Assembly (NCBI GenBank): GCA_964479715.1
Contig: CAYZSR010000001.1
Span: 3,425-46,585 of the forward strand
Length of the DNA: 43,161 bases
Source: an uncultured Oscillospiraceae bacterium
Lineage (GTDB): Bacteria; Bacillota; Clostridia; Oscillospirales; Ruminococcaceae
Direction of reading: 5' to 3'
A program made the position numbers and the translations under genes. The notes under the pieces were generated by a model. It was given only the letters and a program-made list of their open reading frames with translations, ran no database searches and had not been told where the DNA came from. Of the stretch, positions 33,853 to 43,161 are shown piece after piece (position 1 is the first letter of the stretch; each line of letters opens with the position of its first letter).

Positions 33853-33929
33853 TGGTATGCCCGACAGGAGTCGAACCTGCGACCTTCAGAGTCGGAGTCT
33901 GACGCGCTATCCAGCTGCGCTACGGGCAC
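33853..33929 (-). tRNA. tRNA-Arg, anticodon CCG, with genomically encoded CCA
   Basis: The minus strand reads GTGCCCG-TA-GCGC-AGCTGGATA-GCGC-G-TCAGA-CTCCGAC-TCTGA-AGGTC-GCAGG-TTCGACT-CCTGT-CGGGCAT-A-CCA. It folds as a cloverleaf with a 7 bp acceptor stem and a TTCGA T-loop. The anticodon loop is CT-CCG-AC. Confidence 0.93.
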
Positions 33930-34108: not shown

Positions 34109-35338
34109 TTGAAGTTTGACAAGAAAAGTGTTATTACCATCTCTTCCATAGTTGGCGGCGGTATTTTGTTTTACTGGGCGCTAACTAATTTTGACGTGGT
34201 GGGCAAGTTATTTACCACGCTGTGGGGGCTCGTGTTCCCCTTTGTGCTTGGTTTAATTATTGCCTTTTTACTAAACATACCCATGTGCGCCATTGAGAAT
34301 TTAATTTTTAAAGAGCGCCGCCCACGCTACCGGCGGGTGGTTAGCCTTGTTTTAACCATTTTAGCGGTGCTGCTTGTGTTGGCGCTGGTTATCGGCATTG
34401 TTATTCCACAGTTGGTAAACACCGTTTCAAAACTGGCAAAATCTATGCCGGAGTATTTAGAGCGCATGCAAAAGGCGCTAAAGCCCTACGCCGACAAATG
34501 GCCGGATTTGCAACAGTATTTTGACAAGATGGACATCAATTGGAAAGAGCTGTTTAACAAGCTGTTTTCATTTATCGGCTCCGGTGCCGGCAACGTGCTT
34601 TCTTCTACTATTAACGTTGCCACCTCTATTATAAGCGGCATTACCAGCCTTTCCATCGGCATTATTTTTGGTGTCTACCTGTTGCTGGATAAAGAGCACC
34701 TTTCCGCCCAGTTAAGCGGCTTGTTGCAAGCGTACATGCCTAAAAAGGCGTACGCCAAATTAACGGAGCTTGCCACGCTAACACACCACACCTTTTCCCG
34801 CTTTGTGGCGGGGCAATGCGCCGAGGCGGTGCTGCTTGGCGTTATGTTTATGATTGTGCTTACCATCGGCCGGTTTGACTATTCACTGCTTATCTCGGTC
34901 TTAATCGGCTTTATGGCACTTATTCCCATTTTGGGTGCCTTTATCGGCTGCATCATCGGCGCCTTTTTAATACTGGTGTCGTCCGGCTTCTGGCGCATGC
35001 TCGCCTTTATCATCATTTTTTTGCTGGTGCAATCGTTCGACGGCAACGTTACCTACCCGCGCATTGTCGGCTCGTCCATCGGGCTGCCGCCGGTGTGGGT
35101 GCTTGCTGCAGTTACCGTTGGCGGCAGTTTAATGGGCATCTTCGGCATGCTGTTTTTCATCCCGTTCACCAGCGTGGTTTACACGTTGGTGCGGCAAAAC
35201 TCACTGCAGCGGTTGGAGGAAAAGGACACCCCCTCTCCCGTTGACGCCTGGCGTGAAGAAAACCCGCCCAAGCCGAAACGGCAGTTTTTCAAGCGCTTCA
35301 GAAAGAAGAAAAAAGACAGCGACGACAACGATGCTTAA
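34109..35338 (+). CDS. AI-2E family (PerM/YhhT, UPF0118) transporter
   Basis: The protein has about eight TM segments, with the family-typical central soluble insert and LVQSFDGNVTYPRIVGSSIGLPPVWVL. The start is TTG, with GGGGG 8 nt upstream. The C-terminal tail is basic/acidic. Confidence 0.8.
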   Translation: MKFDKKSVITISSIVGGGILFYWALTNFDVVGKLFTTLWGLVFPFVLGLIIAFLLNIPMCAIENLIFKERRPRYRRVVSLVLTILAVLLVLALVIGIVIPQLVNTVSKLAKSMPEYLERMQKALKPYADKWPDLQQYFDKMDINWKELFNKLFSFIGSGAGNVLSSTINVATSIISGITSLSIGIIFGVYLLLDKEHLSAQLSGLLQAYMPKKAYAKLTELATLTHHTFSRFVAGQCAEAVLLGVMFMIVLTIGRFDYSLLISVLIGFMALIPILGAFIGCIIGAFLILVSSGFWRMLAFIIIFLLVQSFDGNVTYPRIVGSSIGLPPVWVLAAVTVGGSLMGIFGMLFFIPFTSVVYTLVRQNSLQRLEEKDTPSPVDAWREENPPKPKRQFFKRFRKKKKDSDDNDA

Positions 35339-35385: not shown

Positions 35386-35417
35386 AAAAACGCCGCGGCC
35401 TGTTGCCGCGGCGTTTT
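35386..35417. terminator. Bidirectional intrinsic terminator (AI-2E gene on plus, long operon on minus)
   Basis: aaaAACGCCGCGGC-ctgtt-GCCGCGGCGTTtt is a perfect 11 bp stem with flanking A and T runs. Confidence 0.9.
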
Positions 35418-35422
35418 GCTGT

Positions 35423-35791
35423 TTATTTTTGCGGAAGAATTTCAAGCCAGTGCCCGTCCGGGTCTTCAATAAAGTAAAGCCCCATCGCTTCATTTTCAAA
35501 AACAATGCAACCCATTTCGCCGTGTTTTTTGCGGGCGGCATCAAAATCTGCCACCTCAAAGGCGATGTGGATTTCGCTGTCTTCTAAATCGTAAGGCTCG
35601 GTGCGATCGGCAAGCCAGGTCCGCTCAATCTGCGTATCAGACACGCCGTCGCTTAGAAAGACAATTTTAAAGCTTTCATCTTCTGGCTGGATACGGCGCA
35701 CTTCCTGCAGATTCAGTGCCTCTTTATAAAACGTTAGGCTTTTGTTTAAGTCCATTACATTTAAGTTGGTGTGGGCTATTTTAAAAGTCAT
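35423..35791 (-). CDS. VOC-family protein (glyoxalase I / lactoylglutathione lyase-like)
   Basis: KIAHTNLNVMDLNKSLTFYKEALNLQEV...IHIAFEV...GLYFIEDPDGHWLEIL is the paired beta-alpha-beta-beta-beta pattern of glyoxalase I-type proteins. Confidence 0.8.
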   Translation of the reverse strand: MTFKIAHTNLNVMDLNKSLTFYKEALNLQEVRRIQPEDESFKIVFLSDGVSDTQIERTWLADRTEPYDLEDSEIHIAFEVADFDAARKKHGEMGCIVFENEAMGLYFIEDPDGHWLEILPQK

Positions 35792-35816: not shown

Positions 35817-37097
35817 CTATTTCACAATTTGGCGGCACTCCATATAATATCTTTTTTCTTTTGCGTGCCCCATCGAAAAGGTTTTCTCCGGCAGTACCCC
35901 ACCCAGTGCAACCCCTTTGAAGAGTTCGCTTTTTTCAAGCTCGGGCAGTAAAATGCCAACGCCGTCGCTGCGGCATAAATCGCCAAGCGCCTTTTCGCCG
36001 TGAATGTAATCCACCTCGGTGCCGTCTTGCACTTTCAACAACCAATCGGCAAAGGATTGAATAAAGCCGACGGTGAGCGGCTCGTCACTGCCGGTAATGG
36101 ACAGGCGCTCTTTTTCGCCGCCGTGCAACAAAGTGAAAGATTGGGCGCCGTCACCCGTTTGAACGGTAACGCCGCGCTGGGCGGCAAATTCCGTTAAGCG
36201 CTCTTTAAGGCGGGCGGGTGTTATATTCATAATAAGGCGGTGTATCGGCTCAAACTCAATGGCGTCGCTGTGAATATTCTCAAGCTCAACAAGGCAAAAA
36301 CGCGCCGGGTGACTGCGCCGCTCGTCTTCAGAAAGCGCCTTTTTCACTTCATCCCAATGGGCTTTGGCGGTGGCAAGGCTGTGGTTGCCGTCACCCATGG
36401 CCATTTCAAAGGGTTTGGTGTTTTTGCCGCCATAAGCGGTTTGCTGCATCGCCTTGGCGGCGTAGCTTTCATAAGAGGCGGCTATCTGCCGCAGCGTTGC
36501 TTCGTCCTCAATCACCCAGCCCTCCAGCTTGCCGCCGCCCAGCATTAAATCAACGCTGTAGGTAGCGGGCGCGCTTTTCACCACGGCGGCCAGCGGCTCT
36601 ATCACACGGTGTTCGGCGTCGTCCAGCAGCATTAAGATGTGGGGGCTTTCAAGGCTGGCGTGGCGGCGTATCTTTTGGCGCGGCGGAATACGCTCTACCA
36701 CCGTGTCCTCGGTGGGGCGAATGCGTGGCGCGGCATCCGCCTCAAAGCTGTACGCCTCTAAATCAACACAGCCGACAAGCCCTTGGCGTATCTTGCCGTT
36801 TTCCAGCGTGCGCTCCACGTACACATAGCCAAAATACGCTTGCGTTAACACATTGCGGCGGTAGTCTTCCATCGTTTTGTTAATGGCGTCTATGCGGCGG
36901 TCAGCGTCGTTTTCAAGGTAGGCTTCCGGCAGCACCAAACGCAGCGTACTGGGGCTGTCACCAACCAGTTTTTCAACGTCTTGCCAATAGTTCGGCTGGC
37001 TTGTAAATTGGTCGCAGGCAATGACCGCCCACTTTTGATAGTCCGCCGATTGGCTGGGTAAAAGAAGGTGAGCCGGCTTGAAAATAGTGGTATGCAT
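35817..37097 (-). CDS. DUF1015-family protein (function unknown)
   Basis: The size is typical at 426 aa. The motif order is as I remember for DUF1015: YVYVE...G..RQGLVG.VDLE...IRPTEDT (compare HExT), DGNHSLATAKAHW (compare ADGHHR), EPIHRL (compare THR) and C-terminal LPEKTFSM...K.YY (compare mPxKSTyFxPK). Several of these positions are substituted, so the assignment is tentative. Confidence 0.5.
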   Translation of the reverse strand: MHTTIFKPAHLLLPSQSADYQKWAVIACDQFTSQPNYWQDVEKLVGDSPSTLRLVLPEAYLENDADRRIDAINKTMEDYRRNVLTQAYFGYVYVERTLENGKIRQGLVGCVDLEAYSFEADAAPRIRPTEDTVVERIPPRQKIRRHASLESPHILMLLDDAEHRVIEPLAAVVKSAPATYSVDLMLGGGKLEGWVIEDEATLRQIAASYESYAAKAMQQTAYGGKNTKPFEMAMGDGNHSLATAKAHWDEVKKALSEDERRSHPARFCLVELENIHSDAIEFEPIHRLIMNITPARLKERLTEFAAQRGVTVQTGDGAQSFTLLHGGEKERLSITGSDEPLTVGFIQSFADWLLKVQDGTEVDYIHGEKALGDLCRSDGVGILLPELEKSELFKGVALGGVLPEKTFSMGHAKEKRYYMECRQIVK

Positions 37098-37127
37098 TAT
37101 ATCTCCTTAAGGTGGGTGAAGTGTCTT

Positions 37128-37742
37128 TTAAATGGTTAGCATGTGCCCCGTTAAGCCGTAAATGGCCATGGCAACAATGCCTATGTAAAGCAGGTTTATC
37201 GGCAAACCGCGGAACGGCGCCGGTATTTTATCGGTGTTTAATTTGCGCTGGCCCTCTGTTAAAAACAGCGTGGCCAAACCATAACCAAGGCCGCTGCCAA
37301 CGGCAAAACCCATTGTTTGGGTAAAAGTGTAGCTTTGCGTCGACGTTATCAGCATTGGGCCGAGAACGGCCAAATTAAAGGTGGCAACGGGCAGCGCTTT
37401 TTCCAGATCTTCTTTGTTGGGCAGGCTAAACAGCCGTATCAACAAAACCACCACCGCAAAAGCGATAATGGCGCAGACGATAAAAATAAGAGGGCGAAAA
37501 TAATCGGCGTAGGCAAATTCCATCTCTGCCAGCAAGCGGTTGGAATAAAACGCCAGCGGCGCGCTGATAACCTGTATCAGCGTAAGCAGAGCGAAGAGTA
37601 TAACGCTGTCTACCACCGGGTCGTCCATCAGTTCAACTAGGCGGGAGACACCGAAGCCGCGGGTGAAAACAACGTTTTCAACAAAAATGGCGATGATGGC
37701 GTAAAGCAAAAAGTTTCCCAGGTTTTGAATAACACTACTCAT
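37128..37742 (-). CDS. RnfA/NqrE-like membrane protein (Rnf-Nqr family), divergent
   Basis: The C-terminal IPAPFRGLPINLLYIGIVAMAIYGLTG matches the RnfA VPAPFRG...G(F/L)SG end. LPVATFNLAVLG aligns with the canonical LPLITTNCAVLG. It has six TM segments. Its ATG overlaps the upstream gene by 8 nt. Confidence 0.7.
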   Translation of the reverse strand: MSSVIQNLGNFLLYAIIAIFVENVVFTRGFGVSRLVELMDDPVVDSVILFALLTLIQVISAPLAFYSNRLLAEMEFAYADYFRPLIFIVCAIIAFAVVVLLIRLFSLPNKEDLEKALPVATFNLAVLGPMLITSTQSYTFTQTMGFAVGSGLGYGLATLFLTEGQRKLNTDKIPAPFRGLPINLLYIGIVAMAIYGLTGHMLTI

Positions 37743-38391
37743 TTAACCGTTTCGCCTCCTCTTCAACACGGCGCCGGAACAGCGCCACGGCGCCCCGCCA
37801 TGCGGCGGCAAAAATGCCAAGCAATATAAAGCCGCCAACGGGCAGCGCCGCCATCGGCAGCAGCGACGTTCTAAACACTTCAATGCCGGCAAAGGTGCCG
37901 TAGGCAAGCAATTCACGCAGTGCCGCCATAAGCAGCAACACCACGGTGAAACCAATGGTGGTTATCATGCCTTTTTTGAAGGATGTGCTCAGCCGCTCTG
38001 ACAGCGGGCTGGCGTAACGTTTAATAATTAGCGGTTCCATCACCAGCAGCGGCAAATAAATGCCGACACCGAGCGCCCGCGTGCCGAAAACAAACTCCGT
38101 AAGGTACGCCACGCCGATGTAAACAATGCCGGCGGTTAACACATAGGTAACCGCCCGTGCTTTGATGCCGCCGATACGCTGGCCGATAAAGGTGGCTATC
38201 ATGCGGGTGGGTGTTAGCAACAACAGCACCGCAAAGGCAAGCACCAGCGCATTTTGCACCGTGCTGGCGGGAATAACAATGGGCGCCAAGCCGAGCCCCT
38301 GCATCACCACCGGGTTGTTAACAAAAATGCGGTCACGCCGGGTCATTAAATCCATATTTTGCTGTAAAAAGCGTACTCTGCTCTCTTTCAA
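37735..38391 (-). CDS. RnfE/NqrD-like membrane protein (Rnf-Nqr family), divergent
   Basis: FVNNPVVMQGLGLAPIVIPASTVQNAL aligns with the RnfE NNxxLVQxLGLCPxLAVTxxxxNAL. GIYLPLLVMEPLII aligns with GIFIPLIVTNCIVL. The start is TTG, preceded by AGGAGGTG, and overlaps the RnfD-like stop (TTGA). Confidence 0.7.
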   Translation of the reverse strand: MKESRVRFLQQNMDLMTRRDRIFVNNPVVMQGLGLAPIVIPASTVQNALVLAFAVLLLLTPTRMIATFIGQRIGGIKARAVTYVLTAGIVYIGVAYLTEFVFGTRALGVGIYLPLLVMEPLIIKRYASPLSERLSTSFKKGMITTIGFTVVLLLMAALRELLAYGTFAGIEVFRTSLLPMAALPVGGFILLGIFAAAWRGAVALFRRRVEEEAKRLNE

Positions 38392-39410
38392 AGGGGCTGC
38401 ACCTCCTTAGCCGGTCCGAAATAGTTGGTTATCGCGCGGTCAAAATAGCCGTAAAAAGCATTGACCAGTAAAATAGCAAAACAGATACTCAATTCGTAGG
38501 TGCCGAAGTAGCGGAACATCATGGCGGCAACACCGAGGAAGACACCGTACAGCGCCTGCGAGTATTTATGCTTCGGCAACGTTACCCAGTCGCTGATTAA
38601 AAAGACGCAGACAAAGAGCAGCCCGCCCGTCAGCAATTCAAACTTCACCACGTTCAGCCGCAGTAACATATCCCCCGGGAAGCTGCCCCAGCTGACGGCG
38701 GCATTGCGGGGGAAAAGAAAGCCGATAACGGCGGTAACGCCGATAAAGGAAAGCGGCGCCGTCAGCGAAAGGCGCTTTTTAACAACGAGGTAGGCGCCGC
38801 ACGCAATAATAACCAGCGCCGACGTAACGCCGATGGGCCCGGCGTAGTTGCCAAGCAGCAACCCCCATGTATCAATAGACGGCAGCGAGTGGGTGCGCAG
38901 TATGTAGGACGGTCCCTCCACCAGCGTAGCGTCTTTAAAACTCCATAGGTTAAAAAGGCTTTGCCAGTCTTGGTTGAGACTTAAAAACCAGTTGGTCGGC
39001 GCGGGAAAGCGCATCAGCTCGTCGGGCCATGAAATGGCGGCAACGCCGAAACCGACGGCGACGGGGTTAAAGGGGTAACTGTCGTACCCGCCAAAGGCTT
39101 CTTTGCCGATAAGCACCGCCAGCGCCACCGCTGCGACCACCACACGGTAGCGCACCGTTGCCGGAAACATCAGTACAATGAGAAAGGCAATCGCCACCGA
39201 TGAGTTTTCGGTTTTGTCGTAGGGGATACCTTTAAAGAGCGCCGCCACCCTGTCCGACAGGCGGGCGGTAAACCACGCCACCAGTTGGATAAGAAAAACA
39301 CGGGGCCCGTAAAAGAAAAACGCCATTAAGAAAAGCGGAATCGTCATCGCGATGATATCCCTATTAAAAGCGTTTGATTTTTGTAGCGTTAATGAACCAC
39401 TGTCTGCCAT
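38388..39410 (-). CDS. RnfD/NqrB-like membrane protein, divergent
   Basis: GKEAFGGYDSYPFNPVAVG (compare KQLFGGLGxNxFNPA), GNYAGPIGVTSALVIIACGAYLVVKK (compare GxxGGSIGETSALxxLxGGxYL) and FLISDWVTLPKHKYSQALYGV...ELSICFAILLVNAF (compare FMATDxVTSPxTxxGxxIxG...PEGVxFAILLMN) support the call. I set the start to ATG 39410 (AAAGGTGG 5 nt upstream); the ORF-track GTG lies inside that RBS. Confidence 0.7.
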   Translation of the reverse strand: MADSGSLTLQKSNAFNRDIIAMTIPLFLMAFFFYGPRVFLIQLVAWFTARLSDRVAALFKGIPYDKTENSSVAIAFLIVLMFPATVRYRVVVAAVALAVLIGKEAFGGYDSYPFNPVAVGFGVAAISWPDELMRFPAPTNWFLSLNQDWQSLFNLWSFKDATLVEGPSYILRTHSLPSIDTWGLLLGNYAGPIGVTSALVIIACGAYLVVKKRLSLTAPLSFIGVTAVIGFLFPRNAAVSWGSFPGDMLLRLNVVKFELLTGGLLFVCVFLISDWVTLPKHKYSQALYGVFLGVAAMMFRYFGTYELSICFAILLVNAFYGYFDRAITNYFGPAKEVQPL

Positions 39411-39424
39411 AATTGCCACCTTTG

Positions 39425-40078
39425 TTAGTTGTGTTGCAGCAACGCGTCCACCGCTTTGGCGGGGTTATCGCTGCCAAAAACGGCGCTGCCGGCTACCAAA
39501 ATATCGGCGCCGGCGTCAAGGCACAGCTTGGCCGTTTGCGGGTTGATGCCACCGTCTACTTGAATCTCTATGGTATGGTCTTGCGTGTCCGCCAGCCGGC
39601 GTATGGCGCGAATGCGCTCCGGCGCGTCGGGCATAAAGGTTTGCCCGCCAAAGCCCGGCTCAACACTCATCACTAGTATTTTATCCACCACGGCAAGGTA
39701 GGGCTTTAACGCGTCTGTCGGGGTGCCGGGCCGCAAGCTGACGCCCGCTTTGCAGCCCGCCGCGTGTATCTTGCGGCAGGTGGCGGCCACATCACTTTCC
39801 GATTCAACGTGCAGCGTGATGTAATCGGCCCCCGCCTCGGCAAAGGCGTTAACGTATCGGTCGGGGCGCACAATCATTAAGTGCACATCGTACACATGGT
39901 TCGGCAGCGCCTTTTTAAGGCTCTTCAAAACCGGTATGCCGATGGATATGTTGGGCACAAAAACCCCGTCCATCACATCAAAATGAAGCATGGGGTTTTC
40001 TTTGGAGGTGGCGCGCAGACAATCTTGTGCCAGGTTTGCAAAATCCGCCGCCAAAATAGAGGGCGCTACTTGTGCCAT
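39425..40078 (-). CDS. rpe: Ribulose-phosphate 3-epimerase
   Basis: VAPSILAADFANL...LHFDVMDGVFVPNISIG...HLMI...ITLHVE...VMSVEPGFGGQ.F...IQVDGGI is canonical. The start shares one base with the kinase stop (TAATG). Confidence 0.95.
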   Translation of the reverse strand: MAQVAPSILAADFANLAQDCLRATSKENPMLHFDVMDGVFVPNISIGIPVLKSLKKALPNHVYDVHLMIVRPDRYVNAFAEAGADYITLHVESESDVAATCRKIHAAGCKAGVSLRPGTPTDALKPYLAVVDKILVMSVEPGFGGQTFMPDAPERIRAIRRLADTQDHTIEIQVDGGINPQTAKLCLDAGADILVAGSAVFGSDNPAKAVDALLQHN

Positions 40079-41541
40079 TAGGTTCCTTTCTGTTCGCCGG
40101 GTGGTGGGGTGCTGTCCTTGCGGGGTGCCTTTTTGGTGGGCGCCGCGGGTAGCGTAAAGTTAAACTGCGTCCAGCTGCCTTTTTCACTTTCGCCCCAAAT
40201 GCGGCCGCCCATCAGTTTAACCAGCACTTTGCTGATGTGCAGCCCCAACCCCGAGCCGGACGCGTTAACGCCGCGGCTTTTGTCGGATTTGTAGAACCGC
40301 TCAAAAACCCGTGCCAGCTCTTGGTCGGACAGCCCGTCGCCGGTGTTGCGTATCGATACCGTTACGTAGTTCTTTTCAGATTTAACGCTGATGTCTATCG
40401 TGCCGCCGTCGTCGGTAAATTTAATGGCGTTGTCCAGCAGGTTGAAAAATATCTGGTGCACAAAGTCTTTGTCGCCCAGCGCCATCACCGGTGTGTCGGT
40501 GCGCATGCCGCGCACCTCAATGTGGTCGTTTTCAATGCGCTGCGCTGACGAGAGCACCACCGACGTTATCAGCTGCCACATATCAAAGGTAACCGTTTCG
40601 GGCACGTATTCGCCCGTTTCCAGTTTGGATATATCCAGCATATTAGAGGTAAGCCGCGCCAGGCGACCCACCTCTTCTGAAACGATGACGAGGTACTTGT
40701 CACGCTGGTCTTCGGGGATGGTGCCGTCCAGCATGCCGTCTATAAACCCTTTAATGGTTGTCATAGGGGTGCGCAGCTCGTGGGCGATGTTGCCCATAAA
40801 ACTGCGGCGGCTGGTGTCCGTTGCAACAAAGGAGTTGGCCATCTCATTAAAGGTAATAGCAAGCTGCGCCAATTCATCGTCGCCTTCCACCGGCACCCGC
40901 ACCGAATAATCGCCCTCGCCAAAGCGGCGGGCGGCAGCGTTCACGCGGGTAACGGGTATCACCACACGGTTGGTTAAACCAAACGCCAGCAAGCCGGACA
41001 CCATTAGCGAAATAAGGGCGGTAAGCAAAAAGCTAGACGCCAAATCTAGAAAATAAACCCGTAGGTTAGAGGCGTCTGAATAGGCGAAAATATAGCCCAT
41101 ATGCTCTTCTTGCGCCGTAATAAGCAGCTTGCCTTTGGTGAAGTTGCTGTGGCTGTAAAACCCGTCCATCTTGCTCATATCCACCACGGCGCCGCTGTCA
41201 TTGATTGATTGACGCACCGCGTCGGGCACCACGGTGCTGATGCCCACTTCATCGGGGGCGGTGCTGTAAATAACCAGCCCGTTCGGCTCGGTGATGTAGA
41301 CGTTGACGTCGGAAAAATCAACCATATACTGCACCGCTAAATCGGGCCCGCTGCCGGGGCGAATGTGCCCCGTGTAAACGCCCAGCGTAATGGTGTCCAT
41401 CACTTTATCAAGGGCCTCTTCTTTGTCGTTCTGCAGGTAGCTGAAGACCGAGAAAGTTTGCACCAGCCCCATCACCAGCACGCTGGCAAGCAGCACCGTA
41501 ACGATGGATGTAAAATAATAATACCGAATGGATTTACTCAT
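40078..41541 (-). CDS. Membrane sensor histidine kinase (2 TM, extracytoplasmic loop, HAMP, HisKA, HATPase_c)
   Basis: The H box is FMGNIAHELRTPMTTIKGF. N is FNLLDNAIKFT, G1 is RNTGDGL, F is VFERFYK and G2 is SGSGLGLHI. A HAMP-like RVNAAARRFGEGDY...LAITFNEMA follows the second TM segment. Confidence 0.9.
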   Translation of the reverse strand: MSKSIRYYYFTSIVTVLLASVLVMGLVQTFSVFSYLQNDKEEALDKVMDTITLGVYTGHIRPGSGPDLAVQYMVDFSDVNVYITEPNGLVIYSTAPDEVGISTVVPDAVRQSINDSGAVVDMSKMDGFYSHSNFTKGKLLITAQEEHMGYIFAYSDASNLRVYFLDLASSFLLTALISLMVSGLLAFGLTNRVVIPVTRVNAAARRFGEGDYSVRVPVEGDDELAQLAITFNEMANSFVATDTSRRSFMGNIAHELRTPMTTIKGFIDGMLDGTIPEDQRDKYLVIVSEEVGRLARLTSNMLDISKLETGEYVPETVTFDMWQLITSVVLSSAQRIENDHIEVRGMRTDTPVMALGDKDFVHQIFFNLLDNAIKFTDDGGTIDISVKSEKNYVTVSIRNTGDGLSDQELARVFERFYKSDKSRGVNASGSGLGLHISKVLVKLMGGRIWGESEKGSWTQFNFTLPAAPTKKAPRKDSTPPPGEQKGT

Positions 41542-41559
41542 CTTTACCGCCGTGCAGGC

Positions 41560-42258
41560 TTACTCCTTCACTTCAAATTTGTACCCCACGCCCCACACCG
41601 TTTTAAGGTTCCATTCCGGGCTTGCGTCTTCCAATTTTTCACGCAGCCGTTTGATGTGTACGTCGATTGTTCGAGAGTCTCCATAGTACTCAAAACCCCA
41701 TACTTCGTCAAGCAATTGGTCGCGGGTGAAAACACGCCCGGGGTGGCTTGCCAAAAAGAATAAAAGCTCCATCTCTTTGGGCGGCGCCTCCACCGTTTCG
41801 CCCTTTACCTTTAGCTCGTATTTAGACAAATCAAGGGATAGGTTGTCATAGCTGATGCGCTCATCGTCCAGCGCGTCGTCTTTGCTGGCAATGGTGGAGC
41901 GGCGCAGCACCGCTTTGATGCGCGCCACCACCTCTTTGGCGTCAAAGGGTTTTACAATGTAATCGTCGGCACCAAGCTCCAGCCCCAGCACCTTGTCAAA
42001 GGTTTCCCCTTTGGCGGTTAGCATAATAATAGGCACATCGCTAATGGCGCGTATTTTACGGCAGGTGTCCCACCCGTCCATCTTGGGCATCATAATATCC
42101 AGCAGCACCAAATCGGGCTGCCATTGCTCAAAAATAACAAAGGCGGCTTCGCCGTCGTACGCCAGCCGTGTTTCATAGCCTTCCTTTTCAAGGTAAAGGC
42201 GCAGCAATTCGCATATGTTTTTATCATCATCAACGATAAGTATCTTGTTGGTTGCCAT
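41560..42258 (-). CDS. OmpR/PhoB-family response regulator (WalR/YycF-like)
   Basis: The receiver domain reads ILIVDDD...DLVLLDIMMPKMDG...IIMLTAK...GADDYIVKPF. The C-terminal winged helix reads LSKYELKVKGETVEAPPKEMELLFFLASHPGRVFTRDQLLDEVWG...RTIDVHIKRLREKL...LKTVWGVGYKF. Confidence 0.93.
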   Translation of the reverse strand: MATNKILIVDDDKNICELLRLYLEKEGYETRLAYDGEAAFVIFEQWQPDLVLLDIMMPKMDGWDTCRKIRAISDVPIIMLTAKGETFDKVLGLELGADDYIVKPFDAKEVVARIKAVLRRSTIASKDDALDDERISYDNLSLDLSKYELKVKGETVEAPPKEMELLFFLASHPGRVFTRDQLLDEVWGFEYYGDSRTIDVHIKRLREKLEDASPEWNLKTVWGVGYKFEVKE

Positions 42259-42341
42259 TTAATCCATCCTTCCGAATTATAAGGGCTTAAAGTCACTTGC
42301 TCTTATTATACCATTGCTGGCTAATAAATGAACCCCCGTTG

Positions 42342-42370
42342 TTGAAAGCAAGCTCTTTTTCCGTTATACT
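42342..42370 (+). promoter_or_regulatory. Sigma-A-type promoter of ychF
   Basis: TTGAAA (42342-42347), a 17 nt spacer, then TATACT (42365-42370), about 35 nt upstream of the ATG. Confidence 0.6.
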
Positions 42371-42404
42371 GTTTGCACACTAAAAAAGATAAGGAAGCGA
42401 TTTT

Positions 42405-43161
42405 ATGAAGCTAGGCATTATCGGCTTGCCGAACGTTGGCAAAAGCACGCTGTTTAACGCCATTACCAACGCCGGAGCGCAAAACGAAAACTACCCCTTT
42501 TGCACCATTGACCCCAACGTGGGCGTGGTACCGGTGCCCGACCACCGTTTGACCGATTTAATGACGCTGTACCAAACAAAGCGAACCGTTCCTGCCACCA
42601 TTGAATTTATAGACATTGCCGGCTTGGTGCGCGGCGCCTCTAAAGGTGAGGGGCTGGGCAACAAGTTTTTATCACATATACGTGAGGTCCACGCACTGGT
42701 TCATGTGGTGCGGTGTTTTGAATCAAACAACATTGTGCACGTTGAGGGCGACGTAAACCCCGCCCGGGATATTGATATTATCGAGACGGAGCTTGTTTTT
42801 TCCGACGTTGCGCTGATAGAGCGGCGCATTGAACGCACCGAAAGGGCGGCAAAAAGCGGCGACAAAGAGATGATTGCGCAGCTTGAATTATTAAAAGAAC
42901 TGCTCGCCTTTTTAAGCGAAGGCAACAACGCCCGCTCTTTTGAAGCGGCGAGCGACGCCGACAAAGCCTTTATTGAAGAGTTAACGCTGCTTAGCGCCAA
43001 GCCGGTTATCTACGTGGCAAACCTTTCTGAGGATGACATTCTAGAAGGCACCGAGCGCAACCCCTATTACCCCATTGTACAAGACATTGCCAAAAAAGAA
43101 GGCGCCGGGCACGTTGCCATTTGCGCCAAAATAGAAAGAGATATTGTGGCGCTGGAACCGG
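42405..43161 (+). CDS. ychF: Redox-regulated / ribosome-binding ATPase YchF, N-terminal part (3' end lies outside the window)
   Basis: MKLGIIGLPNVGKSTLFNAITNAGAQNENYPFCTIDPNVGVVPVPDHRL...EFIDIAGLVRGASKGEGLGNKFLSHIREV is the canonical Obg-like YchF. The frame stays open to the window edge, which is why it is absent from the ORF track. Confidence 0.93.
   Translation, partial: MKLGIIGLPNVGKSTLFNAITNAGAQNENYPFCTIDPNVGVVPVPDHRLTDLMTLYQTKRTVPATIEFIDIAGLVRGASKGEGLGNKFLSHIREVHALVHVVRCFESNNIVHVEGDVNPARDIDIIETELVFSDVALIERRIERTERAAKSGDKEMIAQLELLKELLAFLSEGNNARSFEAASDADKAFIEELTLLSAKPVIYVANLSEDDILEGTERNPYYPIVQDIAKKEGAGHVAICAKIERDIVALEP

Follow-up and report, generated by a model that had tools for sequence, protein, structure and literature searches.

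In anaerobes and pathogens, Rnf and Na+-NQR hold a central place in energy conversion. Three overlapping genes for homologs of their membrane core, designated D', E' and A', lie on a 43,161-nt stretch of DNA from an uncultured Oscillospiraceae bacterium (assembly GCA_964479715.1, contig CAYZSR010000001.1, positions 3,425 to 46,585 of the forward strand), referred to here as the window. Their products make up a three-subunit inner-membrane complex which, judged by the defining features of Rnf and of Na+-NQR, is a member of neither. The four cysteine ligands of the [2Fe-2S] cluster, the motif for covalent attachment of flavin mononucleotide (FMN) and the subunits for electron input and output are all missing. 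Since no electron path remains, a function as ferredoxin:NAD+ oxidoreductase is excluded by inference, as the initial annotation of this DNA had argued from the same losses. The cofactor sites are lost, yet the family is conserved under selection throughout an entire order of gut Clostridia, Faecalibacterium included, which implies a role other than the known redox pumping. Most likely the complex moves a cation (Na+ or H+) or some small polar solute independently of redox chemistry, with gradients already present as the driving force instead of electron flow; the probability of this reading is put at roughly 45%. The three genes are as follows.

38388 to 39410, minus strand: D', RnfD/NqrB-like, ten transmembrane (TM) helices, 340 residues (PF03116, E = 1.3e-52).

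37735 to 38391, minus strand: E', RnfE/NqrD-like, 218 residues (PF02508, E = 7e-24).

37128 to 37742, minus strand: A', RnfA/NqrE-like, 204 residues (PF02508, E = 2e-17).

The assignment of the three overlapping open reading frames (ORFs) to the Rnf/NQR membrane core holds: the Pfam E-values are far beyond chance, and strand, overlaps and starts agree with those first described. D' consists of PF03116 only in the Pfam search. All three proteins miss the NCBIfam cutoffs for the corresponding Rnf subunits (TIGR01946 rnfD, 119.7 versus 207.05 bits; TIGR01948 rnfE, 61.3 versus 213.4; TIGR01943 rnfA, 65.8 versus 229.3), and the same is true of the Na+-NQR models (nqrB, 57 versus 350 bits; nqrD, 44 versus 245; nqrE, 58 versus 248). 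An AlphaFold2 model of D' (predicted local distance difference test score 85, predicted template-modelling score 0.85) has the RnfD chains 8ahx_D, 9eri_D and 7zc6_D as its top Foldseek matches, with template-modelling scores of 0.74-0.82, and NqrB next. The best relatives in the PDB are RnfE (9eri_E, 7zc6_E) and NqrD (7xk3_D) for E', and RnfA (9eri_A, 7zc6_A, 8ahx_A) and NqrE (7xk3_E) for A'.

Loss of the [2Fe-2S] cluster ligands is complete. E' contains no cysteine, A' a single one (C90) and D' three. In pairwise alignments to solved RnfE/NqrD chains, E' reads LGLAP against LGMCP and VMEP against VVNC; A', aligned to solved RnfA/NqrE chains, reads GVSR against GICP and FNLAVLG against TNCAVLG. 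These counts and structure-based alignments confirm the first description of a cysteine-free E' and a single-cysteine A', and alignment to the solved Rnf/NQR chains placed none of the four ligands in either protein. To extend the comparison, 88 related loci were gathered and 81 distinct E'/A' pairs were aligned with E. coli RsxE/RsxA. The positive control was a second set of metagenome loci holding 24 canonical rnfC-D-G-E-A(-B) operons, recognized by RnfG/RnfB, of which 22 were scorable. The residues at the former cluster sites are listed below.

38284 to 38286, minus strand: E' Ala36, at the first [2Fe-2S] cysteine (LGLCP changed to LGLAP); Ala in 78, Ser in 2 and Thr in 1 of the family.

38032 to 38037, minus strand: E' Glu119-Pro120, where the second cluster motif has Asn-Cys (V-N-C changed to M-E-P), placed by the alignments.

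37641 to 37646, minus strand: A' Ser33-Arg34, where the first cluster motif has Cys-Pro (GICP changed to GVSR); Ser in 81/81 and Arg in 81/81.

37371 to 37376, minus strand: A' Asn123-Leu124, where the second cluster motif has Asn-Cys (TNCAVLG changed to FNLAVLG); Asn in 80/81.

All four cluster cysteines (xCP, NCx, xCP, NCx) occur together in 0 of the 81 family pairs versus 22 of the 22 scorable canonical loci, and in none of the metagenome loci of the reduced types described below. Position 119 of E' is acidic throughout (Glu in 52 pairs, Asp in 29) and position 120 is always Pro (81/81). Position 124 of A' is more variable (Cys 29, Thr 27, Ser 22, Asn 2, Leu 1), the single Leu being that of the window. 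In other subclades the polar set found here is a different one, e.g. N-T/D-E or N-S/S-T. The docking residue for RnfB has gone as well: RnfA K32, which faces the B8 cluster of RnfB in canonical Rnf, corresponds to A' Asp41, and Asp is found there in 79 of 81 sequences.

The flavin sites of D' show one clear loss and one retention. Canonical RnfD carries its flavinylation site, D-x-x-[ST]-G-A-T, in the linker between two five-helix halves. The relevant positions in D' are these.

38871 to 39002, minus strand: D' residues ~137-180, the linker between the five-helix halves and region of the flavinylation site; motif absent.

39066 to 39068, minus strand: D' Asn115, retained Asn of the riboflavin/Na+ site, placed by pairwise alignment to 7zc6_D.

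38589 to 38591, minus strand: D' Asp274, retained Asp of the riboflavin/Na+ site, at the TD motif of 7zc6_D and the E. coli Asp.

38481 to 38483, minus strand: D' Cys310, at the position of Clostridium tetanomorphum RnfD Ser284; Cys in 84/84.

No GAT and no [ST][GSA]A[TS] occurs anywhere in D', E' or A'. A relaxed flavinylation motif is found in 0 of 88 family D' proteins versus 19 of 22 canonical controls; among the reduced metagenome loci it appears in 1 of 39, out of register, and in 0 of 9. When 149 sequences, each representing a 50%-identity cluster, were checked for a stricter motif, an NqrB-like outlier (P0264) was the only one to have it. In a MAFFT alignment E. coli RsxD Thr187 stands opposite a gap in 84 of 84 family members. 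A residue-exact alignment of the loop was dropped, as three PDB templates gave three registers. The initial annotation had set KDATLVEGPS at the flavinylation site; the motif loss it described stands, and the residue-by-residue placement does not.

The riboflavin site is a different matter. In Acetobacterium woodii RnfD, N123 and D249 hydrogen-bond a non-covalent riboflavin, and mutating either abolishes activity (10.1101/2024.06.21.599731); the equivalent pair of C. tetanomorphum RnfD, N124 and D248, has been proposed as a Na+ site (PMC9588780). D' Asn115 corresponds to N123 and N124, and Asp274 to D249 and D248. The Asp274 column is acidic in 84 of 84 family members (Glu in 56, Asp in 28); the Asn115 column holds Asn, His and Ser in 41, 33 and 8 members of the window's clade, and Asn in 38 of 39 loci of a sister group that has an added RnfC-like gene. 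The Asn/Asp pair is kept as a feature of the sequence, and D' may still bind riboflavin. Lys103 of D' is invariant. The pocket of the covalent FMN of RnfD (FMN-D) is not kept: Arg130 is replaced by Phe or Tyr, Asn90 by Met or Leu, and Ser284, in C. tetanomorphum a contact of the covalent FMN at its N5 (PMC9588780), by Cys310. The Cys310 position is V, T or M in more distant subclades. The statement that every redox-cofactor ligand has been lost is thus right for the cluster cysteines and the FMN-bearing Thr and too broad in its "every", since the riboflavin pair survives as N115 and D274.

The partner subunits are equally absent. With 23 RnfB, RnfC and RnfG queries, tblastn gave no match better than E = 0.5 in the 43-kb window, in line with the original report that it lacks these genes, and around the 88 related loci, to a distance of 10 kb, E. 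coli RsxB, RsxC and RsxG had no match either; the same method does recover G, B and C in the 24 canonical loci. No ApbE flavin transferase turned up among the window proteins scanned, and the window holds no second rnf-like gene. The description "stand-alone trio" is accordingly correct for the clade of the window. It does not hold in the sense of an isolated oddity, since sister clades in the same neighborhood have a four-gene module in which an RnfC-like protein, RnfC' (gene C'), joins D', E' and A'.

This additional gene lies directly upstream of D' in 44 of 85 more distant loci (e.g. L091:6926-7981 and L106:6668-7948, plus 42 other loci). RnfC' is recognized by TIGR01945 (E = 1e-44 to 2e-99) and by similarity to E. 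coli RsxC (8e-14), and it keeps all eight cysteines of the two [4Fe-4S] motifs. Its FMN/NADH motif G(L/M)GGAxFPT is replaced by DExD-GxPL, and the cysteine of ECEPY is lost. Relatives from Clostridia, Oscillospiraceae and Acutalibacteraceae are named just "4Fe-4S dicluster domain-containing" or "SLBB domain-containing"; these RnfC-like proteins are an uncharacterized subfamily in their own right. Because sister clades retain the RnfC' module, the window represents the most reduced form of a larger uncharacterized family.

One metagenome contig carries both kinds of system (ERZ1026998 NODE-97, L117:2400-12605). A C'D'E'A'-DUF4015 module is present there together with canonical rnf genes, the canonical rnfC (GLGGAGFP) and rnfD (DAVSSAT) lying ~3.6 kb downstream of the degenerate module. 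This is direct evidence of coexistence, and the arrangement hints at an origin of the module by tandem duplication. Two Faecalibacterium genome descriptions list RnfA, RnfD and RnfE twice and RnfB, RnfC and RnfG once (10.1101/2020.12.09.414284). The simplest history is that an rnf operon was duplicated and that C'D'E'A' arose from one copy as G and B, the cluster of A/E, FMN-D and RnfC's FMN/NADH site disappeared; C' would then have been lost in a Ruminococcaceae-type clade that includes the window, giving D'E'A'.

The family is broad and well delimited. Its closest relatives all belong to Oscillospiraceae/Ruminococcaceae, with 234 GTDB species genomes matched and the genera Faecalibacterium, Gemmiger, Ruthenibacterium, Fournierella/Allofournierella, Subdoligranulum, Anaerofilum and Pygmaiobacter represented; cultured strains include F. 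hattorii, R. lactatiformans and Gemmiger spp. (Four contigs of metagenome-assembled genomes, L052, L069, L082 and L083, are labeled "Bacteroides" despite an Oscillospirales-type locus, probably through a binning or label error.) An exhaustive search with a D' profile returned 590 clusters at 50% identity and E <= 1e-30. The top 150 score at least 208 bits, against 100-115 bits for solved canonical RnfD chains. The rpe-linked (C')D'E'A' family is defined by a D' with K-x-x-F-G-G, x-F-P-R and F-R-[YH]-F-G-x-[YF]-E and no flavinylation motif, by E'/A' lacking at least two of the four cluster cysteines, by the absence of RnfG and RnfB, and by rpe upstream. The signatures K..FGG, xFPRx and FR[YH]FG..E are present in most of the 149 representatives checked. 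The window shows every one of the defining features (its D' reads KEAFGG, LFPRN and FRYFGTYE), and its protein is the first row of the alignment behind the family profile.

The genes are also under purifying constraint. In close pairs, D', E' and A' show a ratio of nonsynonymous to synonymous substitution rates (dN/dS, Nei-Gojobori) of 0.05-0.3, comparable to that of rpe (ribulose-phosphate 3-epimerase), and the ORFs are intact and translationally coupled in 85 of 88 loci. Low dN/dS, preserved synteny and invariant replacement residues together indicate that the genes are functional and not decaying. No publication on the rpe-linked D'E'A' family was found in the literature searched, which did not cover all journals; such paralogs go unmentioned in a 2014 evolution paper and a 2025 review, and nothing relevant to the module emerged from the DUF4015 and DUF1015 literature. 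Within these sources, the earlier remark that no characterized function exists is upheld.

Comparison with known systems places D'E'A' closest to Rnf. The two share the D-E-A gene order and the RnfD fold (Rnf: RnfCDGEAB; 7ZC6, 8AHX, 9ERI), the RnfE/A motifs NNP, GLGxxP and LPL(L/I)V are kept in E'/A', and RnfD Lys103 and the riboflavin/Na+-site Asn/Asp are kept in D'. Rnf, however, has a six-subunit set with RnfC (NADH/FMN, 2x[4Fe-4S]), RnfG (covalent FMN) and RnfB (a poly-ferredoxin), none of which the window encodes, and its four [2Fe-2S] cysteines, covalent-FMN motif and RnfB-docking Lys (here Asp) are all missing. The D'E'A' family occurs beside canonical Rnf in the same genomes. Na+-NQR (NqrB/D/E, 7XK3) belongs to the same superfamily, with an Amt/urea-transporter-like D-like subunit plus an inverted D/E pair in common; its similarity to D'E'A' is weaker than that of Rnf (E 1e-12 and 5e-05 to 4e-08). 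It has NqrA, NqrC and NqrF (NqrF with FAD, 2Fe-2S and NADH sites, NqrC with covalent FMN), Thr236-type flavinylation and a 4-Cys center, all of which the window lacks.

A two-subunit "NQR/RNF-like" system, the sole reduced one of this kind in the literature searched, has been described in which an NqrB/RnfD-like domain (PF03116) is fused to a C-terminal NAD-binding domain (PF00175) and accompanied by a flavinylated NqrC/RnfG-like subunit (Meheust et al. 2021 and a 2024 follow-up); by definition the fusion gene adjoins a gene for such an FMN-binding protein or for ApbE. It is also a reduced Rnf/NQR derivative, and the flavinylated Thr of its RnfD-like subunit is lost, as in D'. It keeps an FMN subunit and an NAD(P)H domain, lacks RnfA/E and occurs mainly in Actinobacteria and in members of the Candidate Phyla Radiation. 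D'E'A' is the opposite case: it retains the A/E pair, lacks both an FMN-binding subunit and an NAD domain, and has Clostridia (Oscillospirales) as its hosts. None of the reduced loci has an RnfG-like gene, and the long-tailed D' relatives that were scanned showed no extra Pfam domain. The RnfC'-D'-E'-A' modules of other Oscillospirales share with the window the D'/E'/A' signatures, the neighbors rpe, mecA and DUF4015 and the loss of the A/E cysteines and FMN-Thr. They differ in their extra 2x[4Fe-4S] RnfC-like subunit without an FMN/NADH motif and in other residues at the former cluster site.

Translocation is favored as the role of D'E'A' because the core architecture and the buried polar sites are kept under selection. 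The ion-moving parts of Rnf/NQR would thus be retained with the redox drive gone. In the pseudo-symmetric A'/E' pair, TM1 and TM4 are still broken helices, whose roles in RnfA/E have been described (10.1101/2024.06.21.599731, PMC9588780), and these may form an alternating-access ("rocker-switch") site. The four half-helix tips that once held the cluster would now carry conserved polar residues, Asp/Glu119-Pro120 in E' and, in A', both Ser33-Arg34 and Asn123 with Cys, Thr or Ser after it. A buried acid-Arg pair may act as a binding or gating element, and the Asn115/Asp274 site and Lys103 of D' could provide a second site or a scaffold. Several points weigh on the other side. The contact between E' Asp/Glu119 and A' Arg34 is one that we infer solely from the cluster geometry of solved homologs. 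The polar residues at the former cluster site vary among subclades and could be structural fillers instead of a binding site. Translocation is predicted from sequence, and the locus has no transporter-type neighbor or riboswitch that would point to a substrate. The retained Asn/Asp is exactly the riboflavin-binding pair and the sister RnfC' keeps eight Fe-S cysteines, both of which point to residual redox chemistry in the family.

More specific versions of the proposal are less secure. That a redox-free Rnf/NQR core should by itself carry an ion (Na+/H+) or some flavin-like solute through the membrane is a tentative idea, somewhat doubtful as it stands. More speculative still, the riboflavin pocket of D', free of the covalent FMN lid, might handle or export flavins for extracellular electron shuttling by Faecalibacterium-type gut anaerobes.

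The signs of residual redox chemistry lead to the strongest alternative, which is nonetheless unlikely: a riboflavin-based redox or sensing module that serves as an electron sink, redox sensor or flavin-handling device and not as a pump. On this view D' would still hold a non-covalent riboflavin in its cytoplasmic pocket. RnfC' would feed or read the riboflavin in sister clades, and a ferredoxin, a flavodoxin or canonical RnfC would do so in trans in the clade of the window. The pattern of retention is non-random in this respect: N115/D274 stand for A. woodii N123/D249, with the acid in 84/84 and the Asn in 38/39 RnfC' loci, and RnfC' has all eight [4Fe-4S] cysteines without GxGGAxFPT and the ECEPY Cys, so that the surviving segment corresponds to the adjacent [4Fe-4S]-[4Fe-4S]-riboflavin part of the canonical chain. 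Cys310, invariant in the window's clade, also sits where RnfD contacts the flavin N5. However, no RnfC' lies within 10 kb in the 88 loci and Faecalibacterium annotations give one RnfC, while FMN-D, RnfG and the A/E cluster are all gone, leaving no onward acceptor. The Asn column in the window's clade is 49% Asn, 39% His and 10% Ser. Retention of the Asn/Asp pair is itself ambiguous, because a Na+ site made up of these residues is another proposal (PMC9588780).

The remaining alternatives turn on the gene neighborhood, whose members in the window are the following.

39425 to 40078, minus strand: rpe (TIGR01163, E = 7e-76, above cutoff).

35817 to 37097, minus strand: DUF1015 gene (PF06245, E = 1e-57), starting 30 nt after A'.

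40078 to 42258, minus strand: WalR/WalK-like two-component system, with the response regulator (RR) at 41560-42258 and the histidine kinase (HK) at 40078-41541.

Across the family the order RR-HK-rpe-D'-E'-A'(-DUF4015)-DUF1015 is nearly invariant. First noted simply as a flanking gene, rpe is a near-universal upstream neighbor, directly preceding D' in 85 of 88 loci (median gaps 18, -11 and -4 nt). RR-HK lies upstream of rpe in ~60 of 88 loci and DUF1015 downstream in 44 of 88; in many loci a DUF4015 gene, not next to A' in the window, sits between A' and DUF1015. Distant subclades have rpe with mecA (opposite strand) and/or rnfC' interposed before D', and DUF4015 downstream. A functional coupling to rpe was considered and downgraded: mecA and rnfC' separate rpe from D' in many subclades, so inherited gene order is an adequate explanation of the linkage.

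A non-transport, structural or regulatory membrane scaffold in cell-envelope homeostasis, acting as a partner of the WalRK-like system, an HtrA-like protease or DUF4015, would account for this neighborhood; it is a less probable reading again than the riboflavin module. It draws on the conserved set of WalR/WalK-like system, (HtrA), rpe, (mecA), (C')D'E'A' and DUF4015, on the membrane-anchored, glycosidase-like DUF4015, found elsewhere fused to cell-wall-enzyme modules (PMC12700454), and on the long charged low-complexity cytoplasmic tails of many D' and C' proteins. Yet the gene order may be merely inherited, mecA is on the opposite strand in many loci and the set is then not one operon, the window lacks DUF4015 beside A', and conserved buried polar TM residues are more typical of a binding or translocation site. 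Finally, the progressive loss of cofactor sites and partner subunits could be read as a functionless, decaying remnant of a duplicated rnf operon, a view effectively refuted by ORFs intact and coupled in 85/88 loci, rpe-like dN/dS of 0.05-0.3, invariant replacement residues and hundreds of 50%-identity clusters.

These results bear on both mechanism and annotation. Whether the ion is carried by RnfD/NqrB or by RnfA/E in the membrane is disputed (PMC9588780 versus 10.1101/2024.06.21.599731). Because D'E'A' keeps the D/E/A core without electron carriers, it allows ion binding and translocation to be studied free of redox chemistry; if it is indeed a redox-free translocator, it would found a new class of transporters with a respiratory pump as ancestor, and nature would have provided a test of whether A/E or D forms the ion path. 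The series from canonical Rnf through C'D'E'A' to D'E'A' offers a clear case of a respiratory complex dismantled and re-purposed. In abundant gut commensals, among them Faecalibacterium, Gemmiger and Ruthenibacterium, the label "RnfABCDGE type electron transport complex subunit D" and second copies of RnfA/D/E overcount Rnf capacity, and metabolic models that derive Rnf activity from D'E'A' genes would be wrong.

The D' start is the ATG at 39410, with AAAGGTGG 5 nt 5' of it and the rpe stop codon 14 nt before; an alternative GTG start at 39419 falls within the ribosome-binding site, and a protein identical to D' (P0001) is called on three public contigs. E' starts with TTG at 38391, preceded by AAGGAGG, and shares TTGA (38391-38388) with the D' stop codon, while the ATG of A' at 37742 gives an 8-nt overlap with the E' stop codon (37742-37735). 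Such overlaps fit expression in fixed proportions. Upstream, HK and rpe also overlap, at the stop codon of the former and the start codon of the latter. One terminator-like element is evident.

35387 to 35417, unstranded: bidirectional intrinsic-terminator-like hairpin with a 13-bp stem and A-/T-runs on both sides.

It lies between a convergent AI-2E/YtvI-like gene (34109-35338, plus strand) and a glyoxalase gene (35423-35791, minus strand), and is likely a bidirectional terminator. No comparable hairpin occurs on the minus strand between 42258 and 35423, so that this is the sole convincing one after RR-HK-rpe-D'E'A'-DUF1015-glyoxalase. Because the only strong terminator follows the whole gene string, co-transcription of rpe-D'-E'-A'-DUF1015, or even from the two-component system on, is possible. 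No riboswitch or leader that would name a ligand was found with Rfam at gathering thresholds (whole window and nine related loci), nor did a search of 37000-42700 at E <= 1 give a ligand clue; apart from tRNAs, the Rfam scans returned just an L10 leader, which is unrelated, and an internal ribosome entry site matched by chance.

Some further observations concern the relatives and the rest of the window. An HtrA-like protease lies between HK and rpe in relatives, recalling the Bacillus walRK...htrC region. DUF4015 (PF13200), which occurs fused to cell-wall-enzyme modules (PMC12700454) and is absent from the window, is directly downstream of A' in distant subclades (L004:10588-11727, L007:5118-6230, L092:10345-11499, L093:4756-5961, L094:10617-11765). 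It has an N-terminal TM anchor and after it a domain of ~330 residues; in the L092 copy a Ser-rich stretch comes after the anchor. Long N- or C-terminal extensions bring D' relatives up to 801 aa, and the ten scanned contained no fused Pfam domain. The extensions are Lys/Glu/Ala/Pro-rich low-complexity tails of 100-450 residues, as in P0234 (801 aa), P0205, P0187, P0182, P0083 (N-terminal) and the RnfC' of L129. The best NCBIfam matches of the two-component system are YycF (WalR) and WalK, both below the curated cutoffs. The window has a single tRNA gene (33856-33929, minus strand; Rfam 65.7 bits), between aminotransferase and AI-2E-family genes. Positions 1-29200 hold ordinary housekeeping genes, among them NYN/LOTUS, a GntR-aminotransferase fusion, CNNM/CorC, ClpP, ClpC and GAPDH, and also a Bmp-type ATP-binding cassette uptake system with pyrimidine-nucleoside phosphorylase, an energy-coupling factor S-component, an iron-containing alcohol dehydrogenase and LeuB/LeuA.

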